NCBI GenBank assembly: GCA_964577555.1
Contig: CAZNZM010000008.1
Location: 18,495 to 50,494, forward strand
Source of the DNA: an uncultured archaeon
GTDB lineage: Archaea; Iainarchaeota; Iainarchaeia; Iainarchaeales; Iainarchaeaceae
Length of the DNA: 32,000 bases
Direction of reading: 5' to 3'
Numbering within the stretch: the stretch's first letter is position 1; each line of letters opens with the position of its first letter. Shown here one piece after another: positions 3,089 through 30,367 of the stretch. The notes under the pieces are model-generated. The model saw only the letters and a list, made by a program, of their open reading frames with translations, was not told the origin of the DNA and did no database searches. The position numbers were made by a program, and so were the translations under genes.

Positions 3089-3493
3089 ATGAAAGTCATG
3101 AAAATAGGAATTGTTATTGCGGATTTTTATCCAGAAATAGCCAGTGAAATGCTTTCCGAAGCACAAAACGCAGCCAAAGAAAAAGGCATAAAAGTAGTTG
3201 CAGTTTCAAAAGTGGTTGGCGCATTTGACATTCCTATTGCGCTAAAAAGAATTCTTGAACGGAGAGATGTAAATGCAGCAGTAGTTCTGGGAGCGGTTGT
3301 GCAGGGCGAAACATCACATGACGAAGTAGTCGCATATACTTCTGCTGAAAAAATATTGTCTCTATCGCTTCAATACAACAAACCAGTTGGCTACGGCGTT
3401 TCAGGTCCAAGAATGACGATTGCACAAGCAAAAGCAAGAGCCAAAGAGTTTGCAAGAAGAGCCGTTGAAGCAATTTTTATCAGGCAATCCTAA
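3089..3493 (+). CDS. ribH: 6,7-dimethyl-8-ribityllumazine synthase
   Basis: KIGIVIADFYPEIASEML...VSKVVGAFDIPIALKRIL...VLGAVVQGETSHDEVV fits the lumazine synthase fold and signature (VPGA.E.P......LG.VIRG.T.HF). The ORF track starts at GTG 3080, but AGGTG at 3078-3082 sits 6 nt before ATG 3089, so 3089 is favoured. Confidence 0.85.
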   Translation: MKVMKIGIVIADFYPEIASEMLSEAQNAAKEKGIKVVAVSKVVGAFDIPIALKRILERRDVNAAVVLGAVVQGETSHDEVVAYTSAEKILSLSLQYNKPVGYGVSGPRMTIAQAKARAKEFARRAVEAIFIRQS

Positions 3494-9039: not shown

Positions 9040-11010
9040 TTATTCGAACCCTAAAGATTTTTTTCCTGTCACCGCAACAAGCCAAATTAACCCTATAATT
9101 GAAAGCAAAAAACCTATTTTTTCAATATCAGTTTCTTCGTATCTTAATTCTATTTCTCCCTTTCCATAAACAATCATAAAGTTCGGCGAAGCCTTGTATA
9201 TTGGTGTTTCTATTCCATTTTGATATGCTTTCCATTTAGGAAAATAAGATATTTTAATATAAATCGGAACCCGCTTTTCAGATTCCACAAAAAATTTTAT
9301 TCTATCCATGGTTGGAGATTTTTCCAAAATTCTTATAACTTCAGAACCAAAACCCGGTTGCATATTTTCTTTTCCATTTATGAAAATATTTCTTCGCATG
9401 TTTTTATTGCCAAACCAATTAATGACTTCCAAATCCCAATCTTTGCCAAGATAATTTTTTGGCGCATAATCTAAAACTTGAATAAGAGAAGATTCGTTTG
9501 CTTTGTAAATATGGTAAGTATATTTCTCCATGAATTCTTTGTCAGGCTGCCAAAAGTAAAAAGAAACTATTTTCCCAAAATCTTTCCATTCTGGCAATAT
9601 TTGGTTTTTGCTGACAACATAATTAATTCCAAGCAATTCCAATTCTTCCCTTATTATATTTTTGTCAAAGTCGTTGCTATCCCATTGTTGCTCTTCCATT
9701 ACCCTTGCAATAATTGAATTTTTTGACGATTCTTGGAAAAGCCCTTTCACGCCATAAAGTTTATACTTTATAGGTATTGCATGTTGAAGCTCATGGTTAC
9801 CGGCTTGCTCGGTTTCTTTTGCATAAATTAAAACCCTTCCACTTGTTTCCCCTTGAACTTTTTCCACAAAAGGCTTTCTTATATTGCCTTCAGGATAAAG
9901 CCCAGACAAAGTCCCAACAACCAAAAGGAAAAACAAAATCGAAACTATTGGCAAAATAATACCCGGTTTTTTCCAAAATAAATTTTTGACCAAACCATAC
10001 AAGACAATAGGCAACATCAAAACTACAAACATTGTTAAACGATAGTAATGCATTGGATAATTGGCATAATTCCAGCCAACAAAACATAAAACAGCTACAA
10101 TGAAAGCAAACAAGCTTGGCTCCAAATAATCATTTTTTTTTGAAAACCACAAATAAATTGTTGCCAAGCCAGAAACAATTAAAACAATCAAATCATAAGG
10201 CAAAGAACCTGAAATAAAAAGATCAGTATAATCAATGTACGCAATTGCTGGAACCAACCAAAAAGCCGAAAGCAAAAAACCAAGCAACAATTGTTTTCCA
10301 GAAAAAAATAAACTATTTTTATTATAATGCACTATTGCAAAAGTAGATAAAAGCAAAATGGCTACAATTGAAGTAATTGTGTGTGTTAATATTATAAGAG
10401 CAAATATGAAAGCGCTTTGCAAATAATTTCCTTGCGAAAAACCCTTTTTTAGGGAACCAAAGTAAAAGAAAAAAAGCGAAAAGCCAAGCGTATTTGCCAC
10501 AAGCCCAACATTAAAAGTTGAAAACATGTCGCCACCCATAACCCCGTTTTCGAATATGAAAAGCACGGCGAACATGATTACCATAATCGAAGAGGCTTCG
10601 ATTTTTCCAATATTTTCAAAAGACCTTGCAAAATAATAGAAAGAAACAGGCAACAAAAGAATTGAAAAAGCAACAATAGATTTGAACGCATATTCAAGAG
10701 GCATTAAAAATGATAATATTACAGTTGCAAAAGTGAATAATGGCTGATAAAAAAGATTTTGTGGAAATCCAAAAAAGAAATAAGGATTCCAACCTGAAAT
10801 TTTTGGAAAAATATATTCTTTAGTGTACCAAGCTGAAAAATAATGCCCAGGTATGTCAGCAGTAAAAAGACTATTATGAATGAAAAAAGGCCAAATTAAC
10901 CAAAAAATAGAGTATGCATAAACGGCAAAAAACAATAGCAAATAAGCTTTTTCCGAAAAAAATTTTACTCCTAATTTAACAAAATCCTTTGTCTTTATCA
11001 AAATCGCCAT
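9040..11010 (-). CDS. Large polytopic membrane protein with a C-terminal soluble domain. Possibly a GT-C-fold glycosyltransferase.
   Basis: The 656-aa ORF has about 13 or more hydrophobic helices in the first ~400 aa. Next comes a ~230-aa hydrophilic domain, then a final TM helix. This architecture resembles GT-C / DUF2079-like enzymes. I did not see a diagnostic catalytic motif. Confidence 0.6.
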   Translation of the reverse strand: MAILIKTKDFVKLGVKFFSEKAYLLLFFAVYAYSIFWLIWPFFIHNSLFTADIPGHYFSAWYTKEYIFPKISGWNPYFFFGFPQNLFYQPLFTFATVILSFLMPLEYAFKSIVAFSILLLPVSFYYFARSFENIGKIEASSIMVIMFAVLFIFENGVMGGDMFSTFNVGLVANTLGFSLFFFYFGSLKKGFSQGNYLQSAFIFALIILTHTITSIVAILLLSTFAIVHYNKNSLFFSGKQLLLGFLLSAFWLVPAIAYIDYTDLFISGSLPYDLIVLIVSGLATIYLWFSKKNDYLEPSLFAFIVAVLCFVGWNYANYPMHYYRLTMFVVLMLPIVLYGLVKNLFWKKPGIILPIVSILFFLLVVGTLSGLYPEGNIRKPFVEKVQGETSGRVLIYAKETEQAGNHELQHAIPIKYKLYGVKGLFQESSKNSIIARVMEEQQWDSNDFDKNIIREELELLGINYVVSKNQILPEWKDFGKIVSFYFWQPDKEFMEKYTYHIYKANESSLIQVLDYAPKNYLGKDWDLEVINWFGNKNMRRNIFINGKENMQPGFGSEVIRILEKSPTMDRIKFFVESEKRVPIYIKISYFPKWKAYQNGIETPIYKASPNFMIVYGKGEIELRYEETDIEKIGFLLSIIGLIWLVAVTGKKSLGFE

Positions 11011-11764: not shown

Positions 11765-12685
11765 TTATTTTTTAACCAATTTTGCCAAAAAAAACGCTTG
11801 CGAATTGTTGTCTTGCGGATAAATTCTTGCGCATTTTGACACTTCGGAATCGTATTTTTTACCATTCCACTGGCTTATTCCCTTTCTCGTCTTGAACCCA
11901 TCAACTGCAATTTCTTCAACAAAAAAACCGCCATTCTTTAATGCAAAATCCACAATCTCTTCATCTTCTTCCGGAGAAAGGGAGCATGTGCTATAAACAA
12001 TTGTTCCATTAGGCTTAAGCAATTCAATGCACTTTTTCACAAGTTTTTTTTGCAAACTTGATTTTATTTGAACAAGTTCGTTGCTCCAATTTTTAAGTGC
12101 ATCAAAATCTTTTCTTACCAAGCCTTCTGAACTGCATGGCGCATCTAAAAGTATCTTGTCAAACAAATTCTTTTTTTTTGCACCCAGCAAATCCATTCTC
12201 TTGGCTTCAACATTTCCCATTCCAAATTTTTTAATATTAAAACAAAGGCTTTTGTATCTTTCAAAATTTTTTTCTACGGCCACTATTTTTCCAAGTCCGT
12301 TCATTAAGCAAGAAAGCTGCAATGTCTTGTTACCAGGGGCTGCACAGGCATCAAGTACAATATTTTTTTGTTCAGGGTTCAAAGCTATTGCAGGCAACAT
12401 TGAAGCCTTTTCCTGCAAATTGAATAACCCGTCCTTGAATTCTCGGGTTTGCCCAGGTTTTTCAATATTTTCCAATCCAAAAGCATTTTCATGAAAAAGC
12501 CTTTCAAGTTTCCAACCTTTTTTTACAAGAATTTTTTCAAGCAACCCAGGTTTTATTTTTAGAGAATTAACCCAAATGCTTTTAGGATATTTTGTTTTGC
12601 AGAAACTGAAAAATTCTTCGCTTTCAATTCCAAGAATTTTTTCATATTTTTTCTTGAAATCCTCAGGAATAAAAGTTTTTTTCAT
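11765..12685 (-). CDS. NOL1/NOP2/Sun-family RNA cytosine-C5 methyltransferase
   Basis: SAM motif I is VLDACAAPGNKT. Catalytic motif IV is LLDAPCSSEG and motif VI is VYSTCSL. Confidence 0.85.
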   Translation of the reverse strand: MKKTFIPEDFKKKYEKILGIESEEFFSFCKTKYPKSIWVNSLKIKPGLLEKILVKKGWKLERLFHENAFGLENIEKPGQTREFKDGLFNLQEKASMLPAIALNPEQKNIVLDACAAPGNKTLQLSCLMNGLGKIVAVEKNFERYKSLCFNIKKFGMGNVEAKRMDLLGAKKKNLFDKILLDAPCSSEGLVRKDFDALKNWSNELVQIKSSLQKKLVKKCIELLKPNGTIVYSTCSLSPEEDEEIVDFALKNGGFFVEEIAVDGFKTRKGISQWNGKKYDSEVSKCARIYPQDNNSQAFFLAKLVKK

Positions 12686-12700
12686 AAACGCAATATTGAA

Positions 12701-13853
12701 TCAATTTATTTTCTTGTCCAGCACACATAACATTTCAACATGCATTGTCTGTGGAAACTGGTCAAAAGCTTTTATCGTTTTAATTTTATATTCTGGCAAA
12801 GCCTTTATATCCTGATGCAATGATTCAGGGTTGCATGAAACGTATATTATCCTATTAGGAAAAATTTTTTTTATTCCATCAATAGCTTTTCTTTCAAGCC
12901 CTTTTCTTGGCGGGTCAACTATTATTGTATCAAACCATGCTTCGGTGTTTTTAAGCCATTTTTCAACATTGCTTGAAAAAAACTGAATATTTTTTATTCC
13001 ATTTAGTTCAGCATTCATTTTTGCCGATTCTATGCTTTCTTCGTTTAATTCAACCCCGATAATTTTATTGCATTTGTCTGCAAAACATATTGCTATTGTT
13101 CCTACGCCGCAATAAAGATCAAGCACTATAGAATTTTTTTTTATGTATTTTTTTGCAATGGAAAAAATTCTTTCAGCGCTTTTTACATTCACTTGAAAAA
13201 AATTGTTTCCCCTTATAACAAACTTATTTCCAAGCAATTCCTCTATTATAAAATTTTTTCCGAATGTTTTAATTATTTTTCCTTGTGCCGAATCGCTCCA
13301 TGTTTCGTTTTGCATTATATTTACTCCGACAACTTTTTGGTTAAGCAATTCTTTGCAAAGAATTTCAATTTTTGGGTTTACGCTTCCAAAAAAAAACCAA
13401 ATTGCAAAGCATTTCCCCATTTCCGTTTCTTCGCAAAACCGCATACCTTAAACCGTGTCTTCTTTTCATTATTGTGGCGCTTTCAATTTCAAGTTCTTTC
13501 AGCTTTGAATCAATAAACATTATAATAGAATTCATTTCTTCGCTTATAAGCCAGCATTTTGAAATTTGAAAAGTTTCTTTTGCATTTTTCTTGCTTCTGA
13601 ACCCGAGTTTTTTGTTTATATAAGCTAACTCTATTTTGTTTCTGTAAAATAGGTTTGAATCAGCTGGTTCAACTTTGATTTTTCTGTTGAAAAGCAAACT
13701 TACAGCATTTGATTTTATTTTTAATTGCTCTTTGTAATCAATATCCATTAATGGGCATCCGTTGCATTCTTCTTTTTGGTGCATGCATACAGGTTCTTGC
13801 CTCATTTTTTCTGCTTTTTTCATTTTTTCCAAATCAAAAAACATTTGCATCAC
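12701..13853 (-). pseudogene. RumA/TrmA-family RNA (uracil-5)-methyltransferase interrupted by a 1-nt frameshift in a T9 homopolymer. May be a real pseudogene, a slippage site or an assembly error.
   Basis: ORF 13365-13853 carries the Fe-S Cys cluster CMHQKEECNGCP and the central domain. ORF 12701-13444 carries the methyltransferase core (FFQVN, LDLYCGVGTI, VDPPRKG, YVSCNP). The frames meet at the A9 run on the + strand (13388-13396). Removing one T gives a continuous ...GEMLCNLVFFGSVNPKIEIL... Confidence 0.75.
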
Positions 13854-14909
13854 TTATTTTATCCCAAGGTTTTTGGCTATTATTATTTTTTTTCCAAAGA
13901 AAAATGCATGCAACTTTAAATAACCTTCAAGTTTGCTTTCAATGTTTTTTTTCATTTCAATATGCTCTTTTTCCTCAAATTTTCCCCTTAAAACAATTTT
14001 GCCAGCCTTCAATTTTGCCAATTTGTCAATCATTTCATTGACTGAATCTGCTTCTCCGAGAACTTTAAACGAATTTATGAAAAAAGGCGAATTACATTTT
14101 TGTGCAGACCCCAAAAAATTTTCCTGAAAAACGAATGCTTTTTTATTAGATTTGCCCAACGAGTCATAAATTTGTTTTTGCATTTTAAACCTTACAACCC
14201 CTTCGTTCATTTCATATAAGTACCTTAATGGAAAATTTTTTGCATTGATACAATTCCCAATTTCATTTGCTTCCAATCTTTTTTTTGAAGGCAAATCCAC
14301 TACAGAAAAATTAGATTTTTTAATTTCGCCAAAATAAAGACTTATGCAGTTTGGCTTGCCATTTATTGTTATAAACTCTTTTTCGCAATTTTCTGGAAGT
14401 TCCTCAGGTTTTAGCATGTGAGAAATTTCTATGCAAAAATTTTTCACTTTGCTATCGCTTATGAATTTGATAATTTGAATTGTATCCGGTTCTGTCTCGG
14501 AAAGCGCTTTCACTCTTTTTTCTTCAACCCTTCGCGATGGATCAGCAAAAACAAAATTTGGCATTATTTCTTTCAAATCTACTTTGCGATAATCCGAGCA
14601 AATGAACTTTATATTGTTCATTTCATAGACTTCTGCATTTGCTTTTGCACATTCAATCACTTCTTTGTCCAAATCAAAAGCATAAACTTTTTCAAAATTT
14701 TTTGCCAACGCGATTGAATCCATTCCTATACCGCAACACAAATCCACCGCAATTTTTCCTGATGCCCTGCCTGCTCTGTAATTTGCAACTATTTCTGGCG
14801 TGGCTTGTTCGGCCGCGCTCATGCTTGGAAAATACATTTCTTTCCATTTTTTGAATTTGTTTGAAAGCATTTCTTTTGCCATGTGTTTTTCATATTGACT
14901 TATTAGCAT
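13854..14909 (-). CDS. Class I SAM-dependent methyltransferase with a C-terminal extension (THUMP-like-associated family). Likely acts on RNA.
   Basis: SAM motif I is VDLCCGIGMDSIALA, an acidic motif II is YAFDLD, and motif IV is FADPSRR. A ~200-aa C-terminal domain follows. The gene abuts the RumA-like gene with no spacer. Confidence 0.65.
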   Translation of the reverse strand: MLISQYEKHMAKEMLSNKFKKWKEMYFPSMSAAEQATPEIVANYRAGRASGKIAVDLCCGIGMDSIALAKNFEKVYAFDLDKEVIECAKANAEVYEMNNIKFICSDYRKVDLKEIMPNFVFADPSRRVEEKRVKALSETEPDTIQIIKFISDSKVKNFCIEISHMLKPEELPENCEKEFITINGKPNCISLYFGEIKKSNFSVVDLPSKKRLEANEIGNCINAKNFPLRYLYEMNEGVVRFKMQKQIYDSLGKSNKKAFVFQENFLGSAQKCNSPFFINSFKVLGEADSVNEMIDKLAKLKAGKIVLRGKFEEKEHIEMKKNIESKLEGYLKLHAFFFGKKIIIAKNLGIK

Positions 14910-14913
14910 GAAA

Positions 14914-16407
14914 TCATCCGATTATTTTTTTTTCGTTTTCTTTCAAAAATCGTTTTGCAGCTTTTATGGTTTTGATTCCAGGAGAAATCGCAAAGAACGT
15001 GAATATTGCTATTGAGGTTATTTCTCTTGAATATATTATTGGAACTCCGAATCTTGGAAGATCATTGTAAAGAAGATAAGTAATGTAAGCAAAACAAAAA
15101 ACCACAAATAGATTTATTATTATGTCATTAAAGTGTTTGATTTTAGGATTTGGCTGTCCAATATTTTTTTCTTCTATTTTGAAAGGCAGTTGGATTGCTG
15201 GAATTGATTTGAAAATGCTTTGATGGGTTTTTCTTGCATTATAAAGCGGTTGGAACATTAAAAGAGTAATTATTATTAGCATGAAAGCCAATGGCCCGAT
15301 AATAGAATTTTCTTTTGCCGATAATATGCCGGCAGTGACAGTTGCTATTATTACTACAAATTCTCCTAAAGGTGAAAGCAATATTGCCATTAAACTTGAA
15401 TCTTCTTCATTCAATCCAAAGCTTTTGCCAAAAATCCGCGAGCTAATTGAATGTGCTGCAATTGCTGTTAGGCCAAGTAATAGAGCCAACCCAGCAATAT
15501 AAATCAATCCGCTTATTTCCGGTATTACAACTTTTCCCTGTGTTTCATCAAAAAACAAAGTTGTTCCGAAACCTACAAAGAAAAACACGAGGAAAAAGTC
15601 TCTTAAAAAACTGACGTCTTTTTTTATTCTTTCTCCAGAATTCGTCTCATTTAATGCAAAGCCTGCAAAGTAAGCCCCTATAGCTGTCGAAAGCCCTAAA
15701 AACCCAGCGAGTGTTGCAGTTATAAGTCCGACGCCGAGTGCATATAATGTTATTTCAGTGTGTCCGAATTCGTTGTTTTTCATCCAGTCTTCAATTATTC
15801 TTGAAAGATGATAAACCGCATAGAATGTGCTTACTGCAAACACTATTGCTGAAATTGCTAGGTCTATTACTGAACCGCCTTTGGAACTCAAACTTGTGAC
15901 AAAAACCAGACAAAGTATCCCCAAAAAATCCTGTAAAATCAATATTGACAAAGATGTCTTTGCCGCAAAATTTTGCATCAACCCTTTTCCAAGTATGAAT
16001 TTTGCAACAATAGCTGTGCTAGTGCAAAACATCATTATTCCAACAACCAATGAAAATGTCACGGAATAACCTAAAAACAACATAATTGCTACGCCTAAAC
16101 CAGTTGTTAGCACCATGTCAATAATAGCCAGACCGAATATTGTGGAACCAGCCCCCAAAAATTCTTTTAGTGAAAGTTCTATTCCAAGATAAAACAAAAG
16201 TACAAAAAGCCCAAGTTCTGCAAAGCCCTTAACCAAAGGGTCTGTCGGGCTCAAGAAATGCAATCCAAAGGGGCCAAGAATAAAACCCGCGATTATGAAC
16301 CCTATTACTTCGTTTTGCCCAAGTTTTTTTATTAGAGTACTAAAAACTATTGAAATTATTATTATTACTCCTATCGTAGTAAGAGGCAATACAACTGCTT
16401 CTGTCAT
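14914..16407 (-). CDS. Cation:proton antiporter (CPA2 / Kef-NapA-like Na+/H+ exchanger family)
   Basis: About 12-13 TM helices. The N-terminus FSTLIKKLGQNEVIGFIIAGFILGPFGL is typical of Na_H_Exchanger family proteins. No RCK/KTN domain is present. Confidence 0.8.
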   Translation of the reverse strand: MTEAVVLPLTTIGVIIIISIVFSTLIKKLGQNEVIGFIIAGFILGPFGLHFLSPTDPLVKGFAELGLFVLLFYLGIELSLKEFLGAGSTIFGLAIIDMVLTTGLGVAIMLFLGYSVTFSLVVGIMMFCTSTAIVAKFILGKGLMQNFAAKTSLSILILQDFLGILCLVFVTSLSSKGGSVIDLAISAIVFAVSTFYAVYHLSRIIEDWMKNNEFGHTEITLYALGVGLITATLAGFLGLSTAIGAYFAGFALNETNSGERIKKDVSFLRDFFLVFFFVGFGTTLFFDETQGKVVIPEISGLIYIAGLALLLGLTAIAAHSISSRIFGKSFGLNEEDSSLMAILLSPLGEFVVIIATVTAGILSAKENSIIGPLAFMLIIITLLMFQPLYNARKTHQSIFKSIPAIQLPFKIEEKNIGQPNPKIKHFNDIIINLFVVFCFAYITYLLYNDLPRFGVPIIYSREITSIAIFTFFAISPGIKTIKAAKRFLKENEKKIIG

Positions 16408-17254: not shown

Positions 17255-19042
17255 TTAATTTTTTACTCTTATGTTTTTATTTTGCCTTTTTTTTGGATTA
17301 TAAACCATGTATATCCTGTCAAGATATTTGTCATTGTGCTTCATCCAACCAGGCAATACTCCTGCTTTTTCAAATCCTTCCCTTTCATAAAGTTTTATAG
17401 CTTTTTTATTATCAGAATAAACCGTAAGATAAATGTTGTGAGGTTTGAACATTTGCATGCTTTCTTTTATTATCATTCTTATAAGCGTTGTTCCAAGCCC
17501 AACCCCCCTGAACTCTTTTGCTATGTAGAAACTTAAAGAGACGTTGTCCCTTTCTCTTCTTGGCATTTTTTCCGCCACGGCTCTGCCAACAATTCTATTT
17601 TCATATTCAACTACCCAACAAATCATTTCTTTCCTATTTATTTTTGCAATGCTTTCTTCATCAATCTCTCGTTCCTCAGCGTTGCTCACTCTTTGATCTA
17701 TTGCTATATATGCTCCTTCTTCAACAAGCTTGTTGAAAAAAACCCTTAATTTTCCAAAATCATCCCTTGTAAAACTTCTAATTATTACAACCCTTCCGTC
17801 TTTCAACTTTACTTCTTTCCTGAAAAGCAATGAATTCTTAAATATTTTTTCATATTGATTAATTCTTATTGATGATGCAATCGTGGATAACACTATTGTA
17901 ATAGTAACTATTTCCGTTCCAAAACCAACCGAATTAGGATAAATGAAAATAAAAGTTGCAAGACCCGCACTTAATATGTCTCGCGGCAACATTACCACTT
18001 GAAGAAAATTTTCATGTTTTTGTGATTTTGAAATCTTATGCATTATGCCTACTACTGATGCCCTTGCAAAAAATATTCCCAACAATATAAGAATTCCTAT
18101 CAAAATGTTTTGCACAGTGAGTTGTTCAGGTCTGAAAATCATGCCCAAATAAACAAAGAAAAAAGCTCCTATAAAGAGGCTTATTTCCTGTTGGAAGAAT
18201 CTGAAGGAATCATCAACTTCAAACGAACCATGCATTTTTAAGGTTTTGAAAAAATCATCAGAATTGGCAAGCACAAAACCAATTATTGCCAAAGAAATAA
18301 CACCTATTCCGCCAAGATAAACAAAATCGATATAATAAATAGCCAAAACCAATGCAAAAAGAGGCAAAAACCCAGCTCTTTTGATTTTGAGTTTTAACAT
18401 TGCAAAAAGAAGCATTATGCCAACAATCAAACCTATAATAAAAGAAACAGAAAAAAGCCAAAACAAAACAGTGCCAACATTTATTGCAACTTTTGCAGCC
18501 TCCAACTCAGAATATTTCATTAAAGCTATTGCGATTATGCAAACAATTAAAGAAGACAAAGAAGCCTCAATATAAAGCCTGCTTCTTGTAGCATTTGTTG
18601 TTCTTAATAAAGGTGCTATATAGTATACAGTATAAGATGAAATTCCCCCAAAGATTGCTGAAAGCACAAGAGAATCTTTTAAATTCCAATCCAAAATAAA
18701 ATTTAAAATCAAAAAAATCACAATAATTGAAGTGAACGTATGAAGAAACGCTGCTAACACGGAATTCAAAATATTGCCTGCCACATCCCTGGCTTTCAAT
18801 CTGAACCCGGCTTCAAAAATAATTGAAACAATTGCAATTGCTCCAATAACAGGAGCTACGCTTTGAAGATACTCCAACTCAATTTTAGGGATTGAAAAAA
18901 AAGATATTAAACCAAGAGGACCAAGGCAAAAACCAGTTGCTATTAATATTATTGATTCCGGAATCCTTGTCTTCTCAAAAGCAAACCTGCTTGCAAAGCC
19001 AAGTCCAATTATGATACTTATAAGAAAAATTATTTCAAACAT
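17255..19042 (-). CDS. Fusion protein: cation:proton antiporter membrane domain and C-terminal GNAT N-acetyltransferase domain
   Basis: The N-terminal ~400 aa are Na+/H+-exchanger-like (FEKTRIPESIILIATGFCLGPLGL, about 11-12 TM helices). The C-terminal ~180 aa (about 17255-17815) carry GNAT motif A (FRGVGLGTTLIRMII) plus KAIKLYEREGFEKAG. Confidence 0.8.
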   Translation of the reverse strand: MFEIIFLISIIIGLGFASRFAFEKTRIPESIILIATGFCLGPLGLISFFSIPKIELEYLQSVAPVIGAIAIVSIIFEAGFRLKARDVAGNILNSVLAAFLHTFTSIIVIFLILNFILDWNLKDSLVLSAIFGGISSYTVYYIAPLLRTTNATRSRLYIEASLSSLIVCIIAIALMKYSELEAAKVAINVGTVLFWLFSVSFIIGLIVGIMLLFAMLKLKIKRAGFLPLFALVLAIYYIDFVYLGGIGVISLAIIGFVLANSDDFFKTLKMHGSFEVDDSFRFFQQEISLFIGAFFFVYLGMIFRPEQLTVQNILIGILILLGIFFARASVVGIMHKISKSQKHENFLQVVMLPRDILSAGLATFIFIYPNSVGFGTEIVTITIVLSTIASSIRINQYEKIFKNSLLFRKEVKLKDGRVVIIRSFTRDDFGKLRVFFNKLVEEGAYIAIDQRVSNAEEREIDEESIAKINRKEMICWVVEYENRIVGRAVAEKMPRRERDNVSLSFYIAKEFRGVGLGTTLIRMIIKESMQMFKPHNIYLTVYSDNKKAIKLYEREGFEKAGVLPGWMKHNDKYLDRIYMVYNPKKRQNKNIRVKN

Positions 19043-19188: not shown

Positions 19189-19390
19189 TCCCGCCTCCCG
19201 GATTTGCACCGGGGATCTTCCGGTAACCGCACAACAAACCTTGCGATTATTTTTTCCCAAAAAAGGGTTGACGCCGACAGAAAAGTGTTTTTCTGTCAAA
19301 CGCTTTTCTTTGGCTTCCGAAAAAATTTTTGTCGGAAGAAGAAAAGTGTTGAACTACAGCCGGACGCATTAGCTACTATGCTAAGGCGGG
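19189..19390 (-). tRNA. tRNA-Tyr (GUA) with a 129-nt intron at the canonical 37/38 position. Exon 1 is 19390-19354, the intron is 19353-19225, and exon 2 is 19224-19189.
   Basis: Spliced sequence: CCCGCCT-TA-GCAT-AGTAGCTA-ATGC-G-TCCGG-CTGTAGA-CCGGA-AGATC-CCCGG-TGCAAAT-CCGGG-AGGCGGG-A. C1:G72 plus A73 is the archaeal/eukaryal tRNA-Tyr identity set. The anticodon loop CU-GUA-G is interrupted by the intron before A38. No encoded CCA. Confidence 0.8.
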
Positions 19391-19502
19391 CAGAAATGTA
19401 TGCAATTAAAAGTTTTTGATTTAATTTAAAACCATATCGGAAAAAACGATAAAACTCAGCTTGTAAATTATTTATAAACACACCAGACTTATTAATTACT
19501 TT

Positions 19503-22602: not shown

Positions 22603-22678
22603 AAGCACTTTTTTTTATTTTTCTATTAACCAAAAAACCCCTTAATAATTTTTAATCCTTGCATGCCACAATAACTGA

Positions 22679-26279: not shown

Positions 26280-29200
26280 TTAACTACTGCTGTTTTTTGA
26301 AACAATTATTGAAGCAATTATTGTTATAACTACAATTAATACAATTGCCATTCCAATTCCAGCATATACTAACAATGGTTCATAATCTTGCTTCTTTTCT
26401 ATTTCTTTACCTTCTTTTTTTACTGTTAAAACACTTTCAATAACAACATATTCTTTATTTTTTTCAATTGGCATTATATTTAACCTTGCATTATAATCAC
26501 CTAATTCAGGCTTTTCCCAAATTTCAGAAAATTTATTAATTGTTTTTTTGTTTTTTTCAATTCCTTTTAAAGTTTTTTCAGCACTAAAAACAGTTTTTCC
26601 ATTTTTTGAAATGATTATCTCCGCAATAAAATTATTTATGTCGCTTTCATGATAAAAGTCAAACAATATTTCTGCATTATCTTCTGAAAGCCATTTCAAA
26701 TTTATAAAATTCACTTCAATTTTTGGTTGAAGCAACTTCTTCTCTTCGCGTTTTTTTACTTTTATTTCAATCGACTTTTGAGCTACTAAATTTTTATTGT
26801 CATATGCTTTTACCAGCAAATTATGTTCTCCAACAGGCAATTTTTCTAAATTGAAATCAAGTGTCTTGCCATATTTTTCTCCAAATTTTTTATCCCCCAC
26901 ATAGTATTCTATTCTTTCAATTGTTTTGTCGTCTTTAGTGTCAACTTTGATTGTTATTTTTGAATCATCATATATTTCATGGTTGTTATCAGGCAAGATT
27001 ATATCAAAATTTTTTTGAATAATTTTATCTTTGTCAGGTTTAGATTTTACAATTATTTTTATTTTTTCAGCTGTGTTTTTGGAAAATTCGTCATCAATTG
27101 CAATTGCATATAATTCATTTTCACCGGTTTTTGCAATCCATTTTATTGAAAAAGGCCTTGTTGTATCAGTTCCTAAAATTTCATTTTTGTTATAAAATTC
27201 AACGATTTTTATTTGCCCATCATTGTCTCTTGCATTTGCTTCGATTAGTATTTCAGTACCTTCAATGAAAATTTCTTCATTCAAAGGCCTTGTCAAGAAT
27301 ATTGTAGGCGGTTGATTTTCCCCTAACACATTAACAATTAATGGTTCTGAAGTGGCTTGTCTACCTCTGCTGTCAGTTAGTTTTGCTACAAATTCATGTC
27401 TTCCTTTTCTCAAGTTTTGATATGTAATAGTATCAACATTATTAGAGTATTCTGCAAATTTAGTGTTATCTTTAAATATTTCAAGTTTTGAGATGGCAGA
27501 GTTTGTTAATGTGATATTTACCTTAATGATTATATTTGCAGGTTCTCTTAATTTATCTTGATTTTGAAGTGCAAGACTGATTTTAGGCTCCAGTATTTTT
27601 TCTGCTATTATAGTTATTGGTTCTGATAAATTTATTGCTCCCTTCTCATCAATTGCCCTTGCATTGATTATGTATATGCCTTCATTGTTTGGAGTCCAAA
27701 TTATTGAATATGGGCTTGTCGTGGTTTCGCTTATTTTTATTCCATTTACATAGAATTCTACTTTTGTTATGGTTCCGTCTGGGTCGTTGGCGTTTGCTGT
27801 TATGGTTATGTTTGCTGGTGTTGTGAATGTTTGTCCGTTTGTGGGTGTTGTTATGGTTATTGTTGGGTTTTGGTTTGGTGGGTTTATTGTTATTGTTGTG
27901 GTTGTGGTTGTTGTTGCTAGTTGGTTGTCTGTTGCTTTTGCTGTTATTGTGTAGGTTCCTGGTGTGTTGATTGTGTGTGTGTGGGTGTATGGTGGTGTTG
28001 TTTTTGTTGCTATTAGTGTTGTGTTGAGGTAGAATTCTACTTTTGTTATGGTTCCGTCTGGGTCGTTGGCGTTTGCTGTTATGGTTATGTTTGCTGGTGT
28101 TGTGAATGTTTGTCCGTTTGTGGGTGTTGTTATTGATATAAATGGTGGTTGGTTGCTGTTGCATGTTGGTTTCCATGTTATTTCTGTTCCTGTTTTGCAT
28201 CTTATCCAATATGCTTCGTAGTTGTTTAGTTTGAAATCTATTTTGTTTCCTTTGAAATTTTCTGAAATGTTTTCAGTCCAGAATATGATTGGCCAACTTT
28301 TTCCATAGGCGTTAGAAATTAAGTCGCAATTTGGGTTTATTCTTGATATTTCTTTTAGTACTTGTGATGCCGTGTATTTATCTCCACAGAATGGTAATCC
28401 GATTAAATTGTGTTCTTCTGTTAGTTTTACTTTTGGAGAAGTGTTTAATGTGGTTCCAGAAAATGTTAGAGTTACATCATCAAGTGCTGTAACAATAATT
28501 CCTTCTCCTGAATTGAATTTTCTTTCGGTTTCGCCTATCCATTCATTGAATTCCTTGTTATATTCTAACGTTTTATAACCTTGTCTTTCTTTGTATTTGA
28601 TAATAACATTTGCAGAAGGTGGTGTTTGGAAGATCTCGTTAATAGTTTTGTTGTCTACATTTACTGGGAAAGAAATTGCATATTCATTATTGCTTTTATT
28701 TAGTTTGATGGTTGATTGGTTTATAATCTGGTAATCCGTTCCTTTGCAATGTCCTTGAAAACATCCTTCTCTGCAGATTGTTTCATTAGCAAAACCGATT
28801 TCATCACCAATGCACTCTTTTTTAGTATTGGAGTTTTCACATATCCAACTTCCTGCATCGATTTTTGTTTGGTCTTGTGTTAAGCAACCAGGATTAGTAT
28901 AAATTATTCTAATTGTTTCGTTAGTTGGAGAGTCTTTTATTCTCATTAAAGGATCGCCAATAATTGTGTTTACTGAATAGTAATTATTTTCCTTGTATGA
29001 TTTGAGAAATGCTTCCGCTATTGTGAGTCCTGCAGCGTAGTTTGCAAAGAATTTTCCCACATCGACTACATATGTTGTGGTTGGTTCGTATATATTTCCA
29101 AATGCTGCTGAAAAACTGTTTGAGTAATTTGTTCCACCGAATGCTATTGGAGAAATTGCATCTGCTATCAAACCTTGGTTTGTTTCCCTTTTTTGATTTG

Positions 29201-30224
29201 GGGCTCCTGTCATAGTTGCAGCATTCCAACTTTCAATGCTGTTAAACACCGCTCTGTTTGATACATTACTTCTTACTTTTGGGTTTCCTGCAATCCATAA
29301 AGAGTCGTATCCTTGATGAACTCCCCAACTTGAATATACTACAAGAGGCTTGTCGTAAGATGTTTTATTCCAACGTGTACTTACTACTAAGTCTGGGTTT
29401 ATGCCGACACTTTTCATTGGTCTTCCAAACATCTCTGGTATATAAAGTTTATCTGGCATTCCGAAATAATCTACTGGCATTCCGAAATAAACAGATGAAA
29501 GGTTTGGTGCTGGTTCTTGTGCTTTGTCAATCATTTTTTTTATGTCACCAATGTTAAAACCATTGAGGTGTGAAACTGCAAATCTGAGTTTTTCATCTTT
29601 ATAACGTTCAGGATCAAAGTGTTGAACTGTAGTATCCATTTTGTAATTTTCTGGCAAAGAACGAAGAATGTAGTCTTCCAAATTGGTTGCAGTTCTCCAA
29701 TTTCCTTCATATGCAAGTAATGTTGCTGTTGAGCCAATAATTAACTTGTAATCTGAGCCGGGAATCATGTTATTGCCCGGGTATTTATTTGCTTTATCAT
29801 AAATCGCGATTGGCAGATATTTTGCTATTGCCAAATGGGTTATTTTCATTTCCGGGTGTTGATTTACATATTGGAATATTGGTTTAGCAATGTATTCAAT
29901 GAATTTGTCTCCATTCATTGATTCTTTTTTTATTCTTTCATGTGGAGGAAATACTTCGTCTGGCACGTTAAGTCCTAATGATTTGGCGCCAGGCCTTTTT
30001 AAAACGTAATAATCACAAATTTCTTTTGATTCGCTTATATTTGAATTATATATGCATAAAACGTTTTGATTTGTAGGTATTGCTGAGTAGGCAAATGGTA
30101 AAGTAGTTATTATTAAAAGAAAAATTATCCAAATTTTGGTTTTAAGTCTGGGTTCGAAGTTGTTTTGCATTTGTATTTTTTTGGGATTAATCATTATATA
30201 TATTTTTTTTTTGGGATTAATCAT
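26280..30224 (-). CDS. Giant C-terminally anchored surface protein. In order: signal peptide, TIGR03790-like N-terminal domain, Cys-rich linker, beta-rich domain, about five Ig-like (Big_7-type) repeats, and a TM anchor.
   Basis: - Signal peptide: MQNNFEPRLKTKIWIIFLLIITTLPFAYS|A.
- N-terminal region: VLCIYNSNISESKEICDYYVLKRPG...IIGDPLMRI resembles the TIGR03790 family from memory.
- Ig repeats: the pattern P.NG..F..P..I.I.A.A.D.DG.I.KVEFY occurs repeatedly.
- Anchor: C-terminal GIGMAIVLIVVITIIASIIV.
- Start: probably ATG 30170 rather than 30224 or 30194 (see findings). Confidence 0.85.
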   Translation of the reverse strand: MINPKKKIYIMINPKKIQMQNNFEPRLKTKIWIIFLLIITTLPFAYSAIPTNQNVLCIYNSNISESKEICDYYVLKRPGAKSLGLNVPDEVFPPHERIKKESMNGDKFIEYIAKPIFQYVNQHPEMKITHLAIAKYLPIAIYDKANKYPGNNMIPGSDYKLIIGSTATLLAYEGNWRTATNLEDYILRSLPENYKMDTTVQHFDPERYKDEKLRFAVSHLNGFNIGDIKKMIDKAQEPAPNLSSVYFGMPVDYFGMPDKLYIPEMFGRPMKSVGINPDLVVSTRWNKTSYDKPLVVYSSWGVHQGYDSLWIAGNPKVRSNVSNRAVFNSIESWNAATMTGAPNQKRETNQGLIADAISPIAFGGTNYSNSFSAAFGNIYEPTTTYVVDVGKFFANYAAGLTIAEAFLKSYKENNYYSVNTIIGDPLMRIKDSPTNETIRIIYTNPGCLTQDQTKIDAGSWICENSNTKKECIGDEIGFANETICREGCFQGHCKGTDYQIINQSTIKLNKSNNEYAISFPVNVDNKTINEIFQTPPSANVIIKYKERQGYKTLEYNKEFNEWIGETERKFNSGEGIIVTALDDVTLTFSGTTLNTSPKVKLTEEHNLIGLPFCGDKYTASQVLKEISRINPNCDLISNAYGKSWPIIFWTENISENFKGNKIDFKLNNYEAYWIRCKTGTEITWKPTCNSNQPPFISITTPTNGQTFTTPANITITANANDPDGTITKVEFYLNTTLIATKTTPPYTHTHTINTPGTYTITAKATDNQLATTTTTTTITINPPNQNPTITITTPTNGQTFTTPANITITANANDPDGTITKVEFYVNGIKISETTTSPYSIIWTPNNEGIYIINARAIDEKGAINLSEPITIIAEKILEPKISLALQNQDKLREPANIIIKVNITLTNSAISKLEIFKDNTKFAEYSNNVDTITYQNLRKGRHEFVAKLTDSRGRQATSEPLIVNVLGENQPPTIFLTRPLNEEIFIEGTEILIEANARDNDGQIKIVEFYNKNEILGTDTTRPFSIKWIAKTGENELYAIAIDDEFSKNTAEKIKIIVKSKPDKDKIIQKNFDIILPDNNHEIYDDSKITIKVDTKDDKTIERIEYYVGDKKFGEKYGKTLDFNLEKLPVGEHNLLVKAYDNKNLVAQKSIEIKVKKREEKKLLQPKIEVNFINLKWLSEDNAEILFDFYHESDINNFIAEIIISKNGKTVFSAEKTLKGIEKNKKTINKFSEIWEKPELGDYNARLNIMPIEKNKEYVVIESVLTVKKEGKEIEKKQDYEPLLVYAGIGMAIVLIVVITIIASIIVSKNSSS
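27751..28133 (-). repeat. Intragenic direct repeat: two 104-bp perfectly identical copies spaced 279 bp (93 codons) apart, duplicating an Ig-like domain
   Basis: 27751-27854 and 28030-28133 are identical by direct reading (TAGAATTCTACTTTTGTTATGGTTCCGTCTGGGTCGTTGGCG...GTGGGTGTTGTTAT). Both encode TTPTNGQTFTTPANITITANANDPDGTITKVEFY. Confidence 0.9.
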
Positions 30225-30295: not shown

Positions 30296-30367
30296 AGCCT
30301 CTGGCGAGAATTGAACTCGCGACCCCGTCCTTACCAAGGACGTGCTCTACCACTGAGCCACAGAGGC
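30296..30367 (-). tRNA. tRNA-Thr (GGU)
   Basis: Cloverleaf: GCCTCTG-TG-GCTC-AGTGGTA-GAGC-A-CGTCC-TTGGTAA-GGACG-GGGTC-GCGAG-TTCAATT-CTCGC-CAGAGGC-T. TTTATAATTG lies about 24-33 nt upstream and is a plausible TATA box. Confidence 0.9.

Follow-up and report, generated by a model that had tools for sequence, protein, structure and literature searches.

A tRNA-Tyr gene of Iainarchaeota with a long, multi-hairpin intron and a probably compensated elbow

Archaeal tRNA introns are mostly short inserts that are cut out and discarded, which raises the question of what to make of one that is both very long and elaborately folded. The question arises at a tRNA-Tyr(GUA) gene on the minus strand of a 32,000-nucleotide (nt) stretch of contig CAZNZM010000008.1 (positions 18,495 to 50,494; GenBank assembly GCA_964577555.1), hereafter the window, which derives from an uncultured archaeon of the phylum Iainarchaeota. 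This gene is interrupted by a 129-nt intron predicted to form several hairpins, and the tRNA that it specifies departs from the standard contacts that link its D loop with its T loop. The likely answer, in our view, is that a most unusual intron is removed by the usual splicing pathway: the gene would be a working one, the bulk of the intron specific to its lineage, the elbow of the tRNA compensated, and the intron without a role in trans, to which nothing that we found points.

Identity and conservation of the tRNA gene

When introns are allowed, ARAGORN places tRNA-Tyr(gta) at c[19189,19390], with a mature length of 73 nt and a 129-nt intron at the canonical 37/38 site. An initial annotation, made from the sequence alone, had proposed the same tRNA with exons of 37 and 36 nt, and the two agree to the nucleotide. 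Default ARAGORN and Rfam at its gathering threshold both miss the gene and report only five other tRNAs in the window. Read on the minus strand from 19390 to 19189, like all features of the gene described below, the locus consists of exon 1 (CCCGCCUUAGCAUAGUAGCUAAUGCGUCCGGCUGUAG), the intron and exon 2 (ACCGGAAGAUCCCCGGUGCAAAUCCGGGAGGCGGGA). The 5' exon (19354..19390, tRNA positions 1-37) holds the 5' strand of the acceptor stem, the D arm with its loop AGUAGCUA, the 5' strand of the anticodon stem and C32 U33 G34 U35 A36 G37. The 3' exon (19189..19224, positions 38-73) holds the 3' strand of the anticodon stem, the variable loop AGAUC, the T arm CCCGG-UGCAAAU-CCGGG, the 3' strand of the acceptor stem and A73. 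Between them, the intron spans 19225..19353, as delimited by ARAGORN, and has homologues retrieved with a covariance model described below; its G+C content is 38%, against 62% in the exons and 33% in the window. The product carries C1:G72 and A73, the archaeal tyrosine identity set. For some relatives ARAGORN returned a tRNA-Asn(GUU) or tRNA-Asp parse, which was rejected because it would put U at position 37 in most members and because of this identity set. Likewise, a D-arm pairing of UAGC with GCUA seen in the minimum free energy (MFE) fold (U8 A9 G10 C11 with GCUA; 19370-19383, positions 8-21) was set aside as probably incidental, because A9 is U in loci L009, L014, L021 and L050, which breaks it.

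The gene belongs to a well-conserved set of orthologues. A pattern made of the D arm and anticodon loop, scanned against one genome per prokaryotic species, matched 29 loci, all in archaeal metagenome-assembled genomes, of which 14 bear the title Candidatus Iainarchaeum (a genus of Ca. Iainarchaeota, DPANN/Nanobdellati), with a single match in each genome. These 29 species genomes agree exactly in the D arm and anticodon loop and almost completely in the rest of the exons, whereas their introns and flanks have diverged. The predicted spliced product of the window gene differs from intron-less orthologues (L006, L011, L012, L023) by one base, in the T loop, and its spliced junction is the junction found in these orthologues. 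Against the Rfam tRNA model RF00005 (threshold 29 bits), an orthologue with a 41-nt intron scores 51.6 bits and the intron-less L013, one base from the window's spliced product, scores 63.2 bits; it is through this proxy, rather than through the window's own spliced sequence, that a covariance model accepts the exon assembly proposed initially. The acceptor pair 4:69 changes in a compensatory manner among orthologues (GC, CG, UA, UG). The exon pattern has no match in IMG/VR, leaving a viral origin unsupported. A 342-nt region around the gene is identical in three independent public assemblies (L058, L059 and L060, from JGI 3300037501, JGI 3300043177 and SRA SRR12686701), so the locus is not an assembly artefact, and the organism, whose tRNA-Tyr region is base-for-base the same in the contigs of three samples, recurs across samples.

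Signals for expression are conserved as well. A putative TATA box, UUUUAAAU, lies at 19424..19431, that is -41 to -34 from the mature 5' end, and TTTTAAAT or TTTATAAA stands equally far upstream of tRNA-Tyr in eight relatives (L002, L018, L031, L055, L004, L027, L005 and L003). Directly abutting the tRNA, a leader or start-site motif, GCAUACAUUUCUG (19391..19403), is recognized by its conservation: (G)CATACATTTCT is kept upstream of tRNA-Tyr in at least nine relatives with otherwise differing flanks. The TATA box and the motif GCATACATTTCT (window 19391-19431, with equivalent flanks in relatives) probably represent a promoter and a start site whose short leader is conserved. The window and L018 also share the order of their tRNA genes, Glu(CUC)-Thr(UGU)-Tyr. 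To judge from its sequence and that of its relatives, the locus is the tRNA-Tyr(GUA) gene of an Iainarchaeota (DPANN) archaeon and bears the marks of a working gene, not of a relic.

The elbow is where this tRNA departs from the norm. Contacts G18-U55 and G19-C56 are the key conserved links between D and T loops (PMC7912444). Here the D loop AGUAGCUA reads A14 G15 U16 A18 G19 C20 U20a A21 and the T loop U54 G55 C56 A57 A58 A59 U60, so that A18 and G55 replace the canonical G18-U/pseudouridine (psi) 55 contact; the nucleotides for G19:C56 and U54-A58 are in place in a T loop of 7 nt, and both pairs would be expected to form. The initial annotation had described an elbow with G in place of U55 and a D loop without GG, in which neither contact could form as usual. 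The first part holds; the D loop does, however, contain G19, G19:C56 can form, and only 18:55 is altered. All orthologues combine the D loop AGUAGCUA (AGCAGCUA in L035) with a T loop UGCRANU (CGCACAU in L001 and L015), hence G55 C56, and G55-C56 is invariant in every orthologue that carries A18. The Rfam alignment of the D loop is ambiguous (posterior about 0.7); both the numbering of the loops and the direction of change, from G18/U55 to A18/G55 with G19:C56 intact, rest on comparison with the tRNA-Tyr of L030, which shares its acceptor, D and anticodon stems with the orthologues and joins AGUGGCUA to UUCAAGU in a canonical GG/UUC elbow.

The same exchange recurs in a second tRNA family. The tRNA-Thr(GGU) of L039 (10759-10852, minus strand; 42.2 bits, with a 20-nt intron) combines AGCAGCCA with UGCAACU, whereas the window's tRNA-Thr(GGU) (30296-30367) is canonical, with AGUGGUA and UUCAAUU. 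Among distinct tRNAs in the loci, 25 join GG to UUC and 20 join AG to UGC. Of three apparent exceptions, two are ARAGORN mis-parses and the third is a tRNA-Met(CAU) in L009 (525-597), whose T loop UCCGACU has C at position 55 beside a normal GG D loop. This covariation indicates that A18/G55 would be a compensated exchange of the 18:55 contact, with a geometry predicted from sequence, rather than a defect of the elbow, and that the exchange arose independently in tRNA-Tyr and tRNA-Thr(GGU). Animal mitochondrial tRNAs and tRNA-Pyl also depart from the conserved G18 and U55 (PMC7912444). In the present case, by contrast, only 18:55 is exchanged, in a covarying manner, with G19:C56, U54, A58, loop sizes and stems all kept, and the molecule is a cytoplasmic archaeal elongator tRNA. 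We found no specific description of an A18/G55 elbow in the literature on G55 in tRNA. A run of RNA methyltransferase genes at window 11765-14909 (minus strand), encoding an RsmB/F-type protein of 306 amino acids (aa), a tRNA (uracil-5)-methyltransferase-like protein of 247 aa and a Trm-like class I protein of 351 aa, may be relevant to the elbow modifications of this organism.

The splice motif and the fold of the intron

At the exon-intron junctions the precursor can form a bulge-helix-bulge (BHB). Its central helix, H, pairs C32-U35 (19356..19359) with GCGG near the 3' end of the intron (intron nt 124-127; 19227..19230) through C:G, U:G, G:C and U:G, that is, two Watson-Crick and two G-U pairs. 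On either side, ARAGORN and a motif check place a 3-nt bulge at the 5' splice site (A36 G37 / U(i1); 19353..19355) and another at the 3' splice site (U128 U129 / A38; 19224..19226). The motif is flanked by the anticodon stem (h) and by an outer helix (h') in which CAACA (intron nt 3-7; 19347..19351) pairs with UGUUG (intron nt 118-122; 19232..19236), offset from H by a U2/U123 mismatch. With two 3-nt bulges, a 4-base-pair (bp) helix and two flanking helices, this has the layout known as hBHBh', slightly relaxed rather than strict, and every element of the relaxed motif drawn initially (CUGU/GCGG, bulges AG/U and UU/A, a one-U offset) is present in the sequence. A GCGG or GCAG partner strand occurs in all long introns, and h' measures 4-7 bp in introns of the window type, which can be aligned over their full length; in the 40-41-nt introns of some relatives, H contains a U-U mismatch and h' is poor. 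Forcing the cloverleaf together with the BHB yields a fold of -71.4 kcal/mol against -74.0 kcal/mol for the MFE structure, a cost of 2.6 kcal/mol.

Types of the splicing endonuclease EndA vary among DPANN archaea (PMC5829648), and a lineage with a broad-specificity enzyme had been one of the possibilities raised initially. Because the 4-bp central helix, the 3-nt bulges and the 5-bp outer helix are near-canonical, and because the outer helix covaries, the sequence indicates that no such enzyme is needed for the window intron. Like canonical archaeal BHB introns at 37/38, this one lies one nucleotide 3' of the anticodon, has two 3-nt bulges around a 4-bp helix made of nucleotides 32-35 and the intron's 3' end, has the anticodon stem on one side of this motif and an outer helix on the other, and would presumably, by analogy, be removed by the endonuclease and RtcB. 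It differs from them in its covarying multi-hairpin junction, the two G-U pairs of its central helix and the U-U offset of its outer helix.

The body of the intron is predicted to be highly structured, with an MFE of -39.3 kcal/mol on its own (z = -4.03) and -74.0 kcal/mol for the whole pre-tRNA (z = -4.69). Hairpin H1 (CUUUUCUU-CUUCCGA...UCGGAAG-CCA-AAGAAAAG; 19303..19346) sets a pyrimidine arm, C-UUUUCUU-CUUCCGA, against a purine arm, UCGGAAG-(CCA)-AAGAAAAG, with a one-sided internal loop of 3 nt. It is followed by H2 (CG-UUU-GACAGAAAA / UUUUCUGUC-GG-CG with loop ACAC; 19272..19302) and H3 (CCC-UUUUUU-GGG; 19256..19267). H1 and H2 are supported by fold, alignment and covariation, H3 by fold and covariation. 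In the forced fold the outer helix closes a junction of these three hairpins and a small fourth one, the latter not conserved. A blastn comparison of the intron with the window returned only the self-match, hence no second copy there.

We built a covariance model, R1, from four introns (window, L018, L055 and L056), with a structure comprising h, H, h', H1, H2 and H3, and it retrieved nine more tRNA-Tyr introns at 37-114 bits. In the resulting alignment of 13 introns, 94.0% of cells fall in standard pairs, compared with 82.7% after shuffling (a level reached in 0/500 shuffles) and 42-58% in slid controls; fitting the alignment to the model structure inflates pairing somewhat, which counts against a strong reading of these values, yet the margins remain large. 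Changes on both sides affect 24 of the 42 pairs, where shuffling gives 11.2 (0/500 reach the observed value) and slid controls 5-10, and they are spread over h' (3/4), H1 (9/11), H2 (8/13) and H3 (4/5). All helices listed initially, namely the extended hairpin, the 9-bp hairpin, CCC-U6-GGG and CAACA/UGUUG, can be found in the sequence, and the covariation for which a check had been suggested is present.

These observations fit a simple sequence of events, drawn in part from established archaeal tRNA biology. The conserved TATA box, some 40 nt upstream, would direct transcription of a pre-tRNA, which would then fold so that C32-U35 pairs with the intronic GCGG and intron nt 3-7 with nt 118-122, presenting a near-canonical BHB at 37/38. 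The archaeal splicing endonuclease would cut this motif, and RtcB would ligate the exons and circularise the intron (PMC4536317). Since no CCA is encoded, it would be added afterwards. By closing the three-hairpin junction, the outer helix would keep the insert self-contained and bring the splice sites together. The bulk of the intron, in turn, would be a lineage-specific matter of modules gained, duplicated and lost, giving lengths of 0-238 nt across the phylum.

Intron length in the phylum and a tRNA-associated repeat module

At 129 nt the window intron equals the upper limit reported for archaeal tRNA introns, which span 11-129 nt with medians of 12-25 nt (PMC4090602), and its description as very long for an archaeon is borne out. 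Within the phylum, however, length proves to be anything but fixed. The intron is absent in L006, L011, L012, L013 and L023, measures 40-41 nt in six loci, and otherwise takes 71, 85, 93, 110, 122, 126, 129 (window), 142, 150, 154, 170, 176, 177, 178 or 181 nt, with 238 nt in the tRNA-Tyr of metagenome contig L030. By homology, then, it is a member of a phylum-wide family of hypervariable length, 0-238 nt, which the initial annotation, working from one sequence, had missed. Because sister lineages lack it, the intron appears dispensable for tRNA-Tyr function. L030, a close relative (867-1179 and 1-222), carries copies of the module described below in both polarities within its 238-nt intron and an archaeal RNase P RNA (96.8 bits) beside the tRNA-Tyr, and long introns in the phylum are not confined to tRNA-Tyr, as the 107-nt A-rich intron of a tRNA-Thr(UGU) in L028 (1663-1841) illustrates. 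The literature on tRNA introns of Iainarchaeota or Diapherotrites yielded no specific description, and we found no account of homologous introns that covary, form several hairpins and range over 0-238 nt throughout a phylum.

A second feature overlooked at first is the origin of the hairpins. In most long relatives H1 is a perfect pyrimidine/purine (Y/R) hairpin, followed by a linker of 6-11 nt (CUCGRCC, CGUYGACG or CCUGGGG) and then by a mirror purine tract: A3GA6 is followed by A6GA4 in L004 and A2GA4 by A4GA2 in L008, and the mirror match is 14/14 in L056 and 13/13 in L007. Of 19 non-redundant modules, the mirror match beats the direct one in 14 and ties with it in five, the reverse outcome never occurring. 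Mirror symmetry in a purine tract that adjoins a Y/R duplex follows the rule for antiparallel triple helices of the reverse-Hoogsteen type, with G.G-C and A.A-U triplets (PMC13541005, PMC4666352). Low complexity left a MAFFT alignment of 17 module copies too scrambled for a covariance model, and this mirror-versus-direct test and a rule-based scan took its place. No Rfam family matches the module in nine related loci.

The rule-based scan, over 331,558 nt, found 32 modules, 31 of which lie in a tRNA-Tyr intron or at most 108 nt from a tRNA; the one exception is weak. In the polarity of the intron, copies stand 7 nt after tRNA-Tyr in L016 (3153-3199) and 108 nt before it in L024 (3373-3409). 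The reverse-complement polarity (Y3-linker-Y-loop-R, the order for U.A-U / C+.G-C triplets) occurs 2-5 nt upstream of tRNA-Thr(UGU) in L018, L003 (3182-3230) and L039 (2735-2800), again 2-5 nt upstream of tRNA-Glu(CUC) in L018, whose two copies are at 2215-2271 and 3111-3172, and 17 nt downstream of tRNA-Pro in L013 (7584-7640). Between the tRNA-Thr leaders of L018 and L039 all three strands swap run order together, from U4CU5 / U5CU4 / A4GA5 in the former to U5CU4 / U4CU5 / A5GA4 in the latter.

In the window the module survives in altered form. H1 is homologous to its Y/R hairpin and retains the homopyrimidine/homopurine character (C-UUUUCUU-CUUCC / GGAAG-(CCA)-AAGAAAAG), interrupted and with a lineage-specific extension of the tip. 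The 5' arm of H2, AGAAAAA, occupies the position of the relatives' mirror purine tract R2 and matches at 6/8 in the mirror and the direct reading alike (p about 0.06). A strict module scan finds none in the window, whose copy is degenerate. As judged by comparison with these relatives, the first hairpin of the intron descends from a tRNA-associated, triplex-capable repeat module, and because H1 and R2 share this descent, the structured look of the window intron would be largely inherited from the module, with H3 and the closing helix added. We found no account of intron hairpins descending from a triplex-capable mirror-repeat module. Upstream of the window's own tRNA-Thr(UGU), at 22603-22640, there is only GGGGUUUUUUGG...AAAAAUAAAAAAAAG, which may be a decayed remnant of the leader module of L018, L003 and L039.

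Competing explanations and significance

Several observations weigh against splicing of a passive insert as the whole explanation. The compensation that maintains H1-H3, and the strict mirror rule in relatives, both represent more constraint than a purely passive insert needs. The motif UAAUCGC (19243..19249; UAACCGU in relatives), moderately supported by the RNAalifold consensus, the MFE fold and a survey of partners, can pair with the last six intron nucleotides and A38 (GCGGUU+A38, 19224-19230), which would mask the 3' splice site and exclude helix H; the MFE fold and RNAalifold prefer this alternative 3' hairpin to the central helix. For the window type a per-sequence shuffle test of the hairpin gives p about 0.1, and in other intron subfamilies the 3' end differs, as does the partner that matches it (p = 0.003 in L026, 0.027 in L051 and 0.013 in L020). 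It may represent a regulated or conformational switch, or selection on the fold of the excised intron itself. The intron also contains two runs of six U (19320-19325 and 19259-19264; pre-tRNA positions 66-71 and 127-132), and oligo-U tracts resemble archaeal termination signals. Finally, none of 29 open reading frames (ORFs) in the window contains a tRNA_int_endo domain, no splicing endonuclease being encoded there, and the gene survey covers the 32-kb window, such that a second tRNA-Tyr may lie elsewhere in the genome.

The first competing explanation, a possible one that we regard as somewhat unlikely, holds that the hairpins reflect selfish or DNA-level behaviour: an A/T-rich intrastrand-triplex module would colonise the removable parts of tRNA transcription units and drive local instability, its structure being merely tolerated. 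This would account for both orientations of the module, Y-loop-R-linker-R2 being the form in the intron and flanks of tRNA-Tyr and Y3-linker-Y-loop-R the form found downstream of tRNA-Pro and immediately upstream of tRNA-Thr and tRNA-Glu, for the shared linkers of CUCGRCC / CGUYGACG type, and for an intron length that is hypervariable between near-identical exons. Bacterial intrastrand triplex repeats (PIT, BoxC and TM-ECO) provide a parallel: in these elements, too, three tracts follow one another on a single strand in keeping with triplex rules, as a hairpin and a mirror third tract, and the elements are scattered through non-coding DNA in either orientation, conserved, and tied to locally variable sequence and local genome instability (PMC4666352). 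The archaeal module, in contrast, is A/T-rich where the bacterial motif studied is G/C-rich, is found only in or next to tRNA genes and in regions that are transcribed and later removed, and in its window copy no longer obeys the mirror rule. Moreover, the G-U pairs of H2 and h' and their compensatory changes are sensible only in the sense-strand RNA, no pair of empty and filled sites with a target-site duplication was found, and modules come as close as 2-17 nt to mature tRNA ends, a proximity that suggests a constraint from RNA processing. This explanation also overlaps with ordinary splicing of a lineage-specific insert, from which it differs only on whether selection maintains the structure.

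Alternatively, the excised intron, probably circularised, could itself be a functional or deliberately stabilised RNA for which the hairpins, the 3' hairpin and, in relatives, a putative triple helix of purine tract and Y/R hairpin would be kept, serving decay resistance, the timing of splicing or the binding of a partner. In its favour, covariation in H1, H2 and H3 exceeds what juxtaposing the splice sites needs, the mirror rule extends to portions of the tract that the secondary structure leaves unpaired (L056 is an example) and is never reversed, and compensatory variants of the alternative hairpin occur in L026, L051 and L020. There is also a precedent, since archaeal tRNA introns are circularised after cleavage and a structured 113-nt tRNA-Tyr intron of Drosophila gives rise to a stable circular RNA (PMC4536317). 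That tRNA intronic circular RNA, tric31905, likewise derives from tRNA-Tyr(GUA), and the two introns, of about 113-129 nt, are unusually long with a conserved base-paired structure. The organisms, however, belong to different domains of life, the sequences are unrelated, the archaeal intron is absent in sister lineages, and its circularity would be assumed by analogy. We think such a function unlikely, given that several lineages with the same exons have no intron and others an unrelated one of 40-41 nt, that hairpin number and length vary freely, that the window's mirror tract is degenerate, and that no target complementarity was found. A single function at the RNA level also fits poorly with a module present in both orientations relative to tRNA genes.

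A related conjecture, which we rate as doubtful, is that Iainarchaeota pre-tRNAs bear genuine RNA triple helices in the segments that they discard, in the leaders and, with opposite polarity, in the tRNA-Tyr intron. In tRNA-Thr and tRNA-Glu leaders of relatives (L018, L003, L039), the U/C tract, U/C arm and A/G arm end 2-5 nt before the tRNA 5' end, and cleavage by RNase P would leave an A-rich 3' end that fits a U.A-U / C+.G-C triple helix, reminiscent of MALAT1 and MEN-beta (PMC8457004). This is a resemblance that concerns those leaders rather than the window, and the topology is that of a simple hairpin with a 5' strand, not of an expression and nuclear retention element (ENE). A search of the literature for a triple helix with a tRNA intron returned nothing specific. 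If the conjecture were true, the leader modules would parallel, in Archaea, the way in which the MALAT1 triple helix adjoins mascRNA, the tRNA-Tyr intron module would provide a purine third strand of the reverse-Hoogsteen type, and the window intron would belong, in partly decayed form, to a new class of structured, triplex-bearing tRNA by-product RNAs; the triple helices and the hairpin masking the 3' splice site would together confer stability on the leader or circular intron once released, or would time processing.

The remaining explanations fare much worse. That the locus is a decaying or silent copy, with another tRNA-Tyr working elsewhere, could be argued from the replacement of U55, a conserved T-loop residue (PMC7912444), by G, from the failure of default ARAGORN and Rfam to detect the gene and from a view limited to the window. 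It is very improbable next to a D arm and anticodon loop that stay exact in 29 genomes while introns and flanks diverge, near-invariant exons, a compensatory acceptor pair, an A18/G55 pair that covaries in two tRNA families, a conserved promoter and a single pattern match per genome. Even less credible is a tRNA on its way to being split, with a 5' half ending at the U6 runs and a 3' half transcribed from an internal A/T-rich element before joining in trans: besides the U6 runs, a conserved A/T-rich GAAAAUAAYCG about 25 nt upstream of the 3' exon would suit it, but the U runs are not conserved at those places in relatives, where H3 loops vary (UUGC, UUUGAU, AUUUU and others), the A/T-rich motif is better explained by its pairing with the 3' splice junction, and the closing helix h' covaries as a helix in cis.

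As to cargo, the annotators had seen no C/D guide in the intron and judged it too short for a homing endonuclease, and we concur on both counts. UGAUGA, UGAUG and CUGA are all absent from its sequence, which at 129 nt cannot encode such an enzyme, and a search against Rfam at E <= 10 returned no C/D-box or archaeal H/ACA family and no significant small nucleolar RNA (snoRNA) family, but only microRNA-like hairpins below threshold (the best being mir-3747, with 25.3 bits where the threshold is 63) and a lone H/ACA-type match, to a nematode snoRNA on the opposite strand (17 bits, threshold 60). No two-sided pseudouridylation pocket and no guide complementarity were found in the intron. The euryarchaeal tRNA-Trp intron that acts as a C/D guide is similarly long, structured and situated at 37/38, and competing conformations are plausible for both, yet the window intron lacks its C, D, C' and D' boxes. 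A guide RNA (C/D as in tRNA-Trp, or H/ACA for psi35), a homing-endonuclease remnant or a self-splicing ribozyme is thus extremely unlikely, for all that the length approaches that of guide-carrying tRNA-Trp introns and the hairpins resemble small-RNA stems, in an intron with neither RUGAUGA nor CUGA.

Other genes of the window include, downstream of the tRNA, one for a 595-aa Na+/H+ exchanger fused to a C-terminal GNAT acetyltransferase domain (17255-19042, minus strand), a second exchanger (14914-16407), a 656-aa ORF without a Pfam match (9040-11010, minus strand) and a 1314-aa protein with four Big_7 Ig-like repeats and a PKD domain, likely a surface protein (26280-30224, minus strand).

These findings carry several implications. 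In practical terms, default tRNA searches overlook this gene, such that genomes of the phylum may seem to be without tRNA-Tyr, distorting estimates of their completeness. Archaeal tRNA introns were known up to 129 nt (PMC4090602); the intron family extends this limit to 181-238 nt and, with members of 0-238 nt between near-identical exons, constitutes a rare set with enough homologues for studying the growth, folding and loss of such introns. RNase P, the ribosome and modification enzymes read the elbow, and psi55 is impossible on G55; the substitution of A18/G55 for the strongly conserved G18/psi55 (PMC7912444), apparently twice independently, would amount to a natural compensatory experiment on this part of the tRNA. 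Finally, a triplex-capable module tied almost exclusively to tRNA genes is a lead, open to testing, towards triple helices of RNA or DNA that occur naturally in Archaea.

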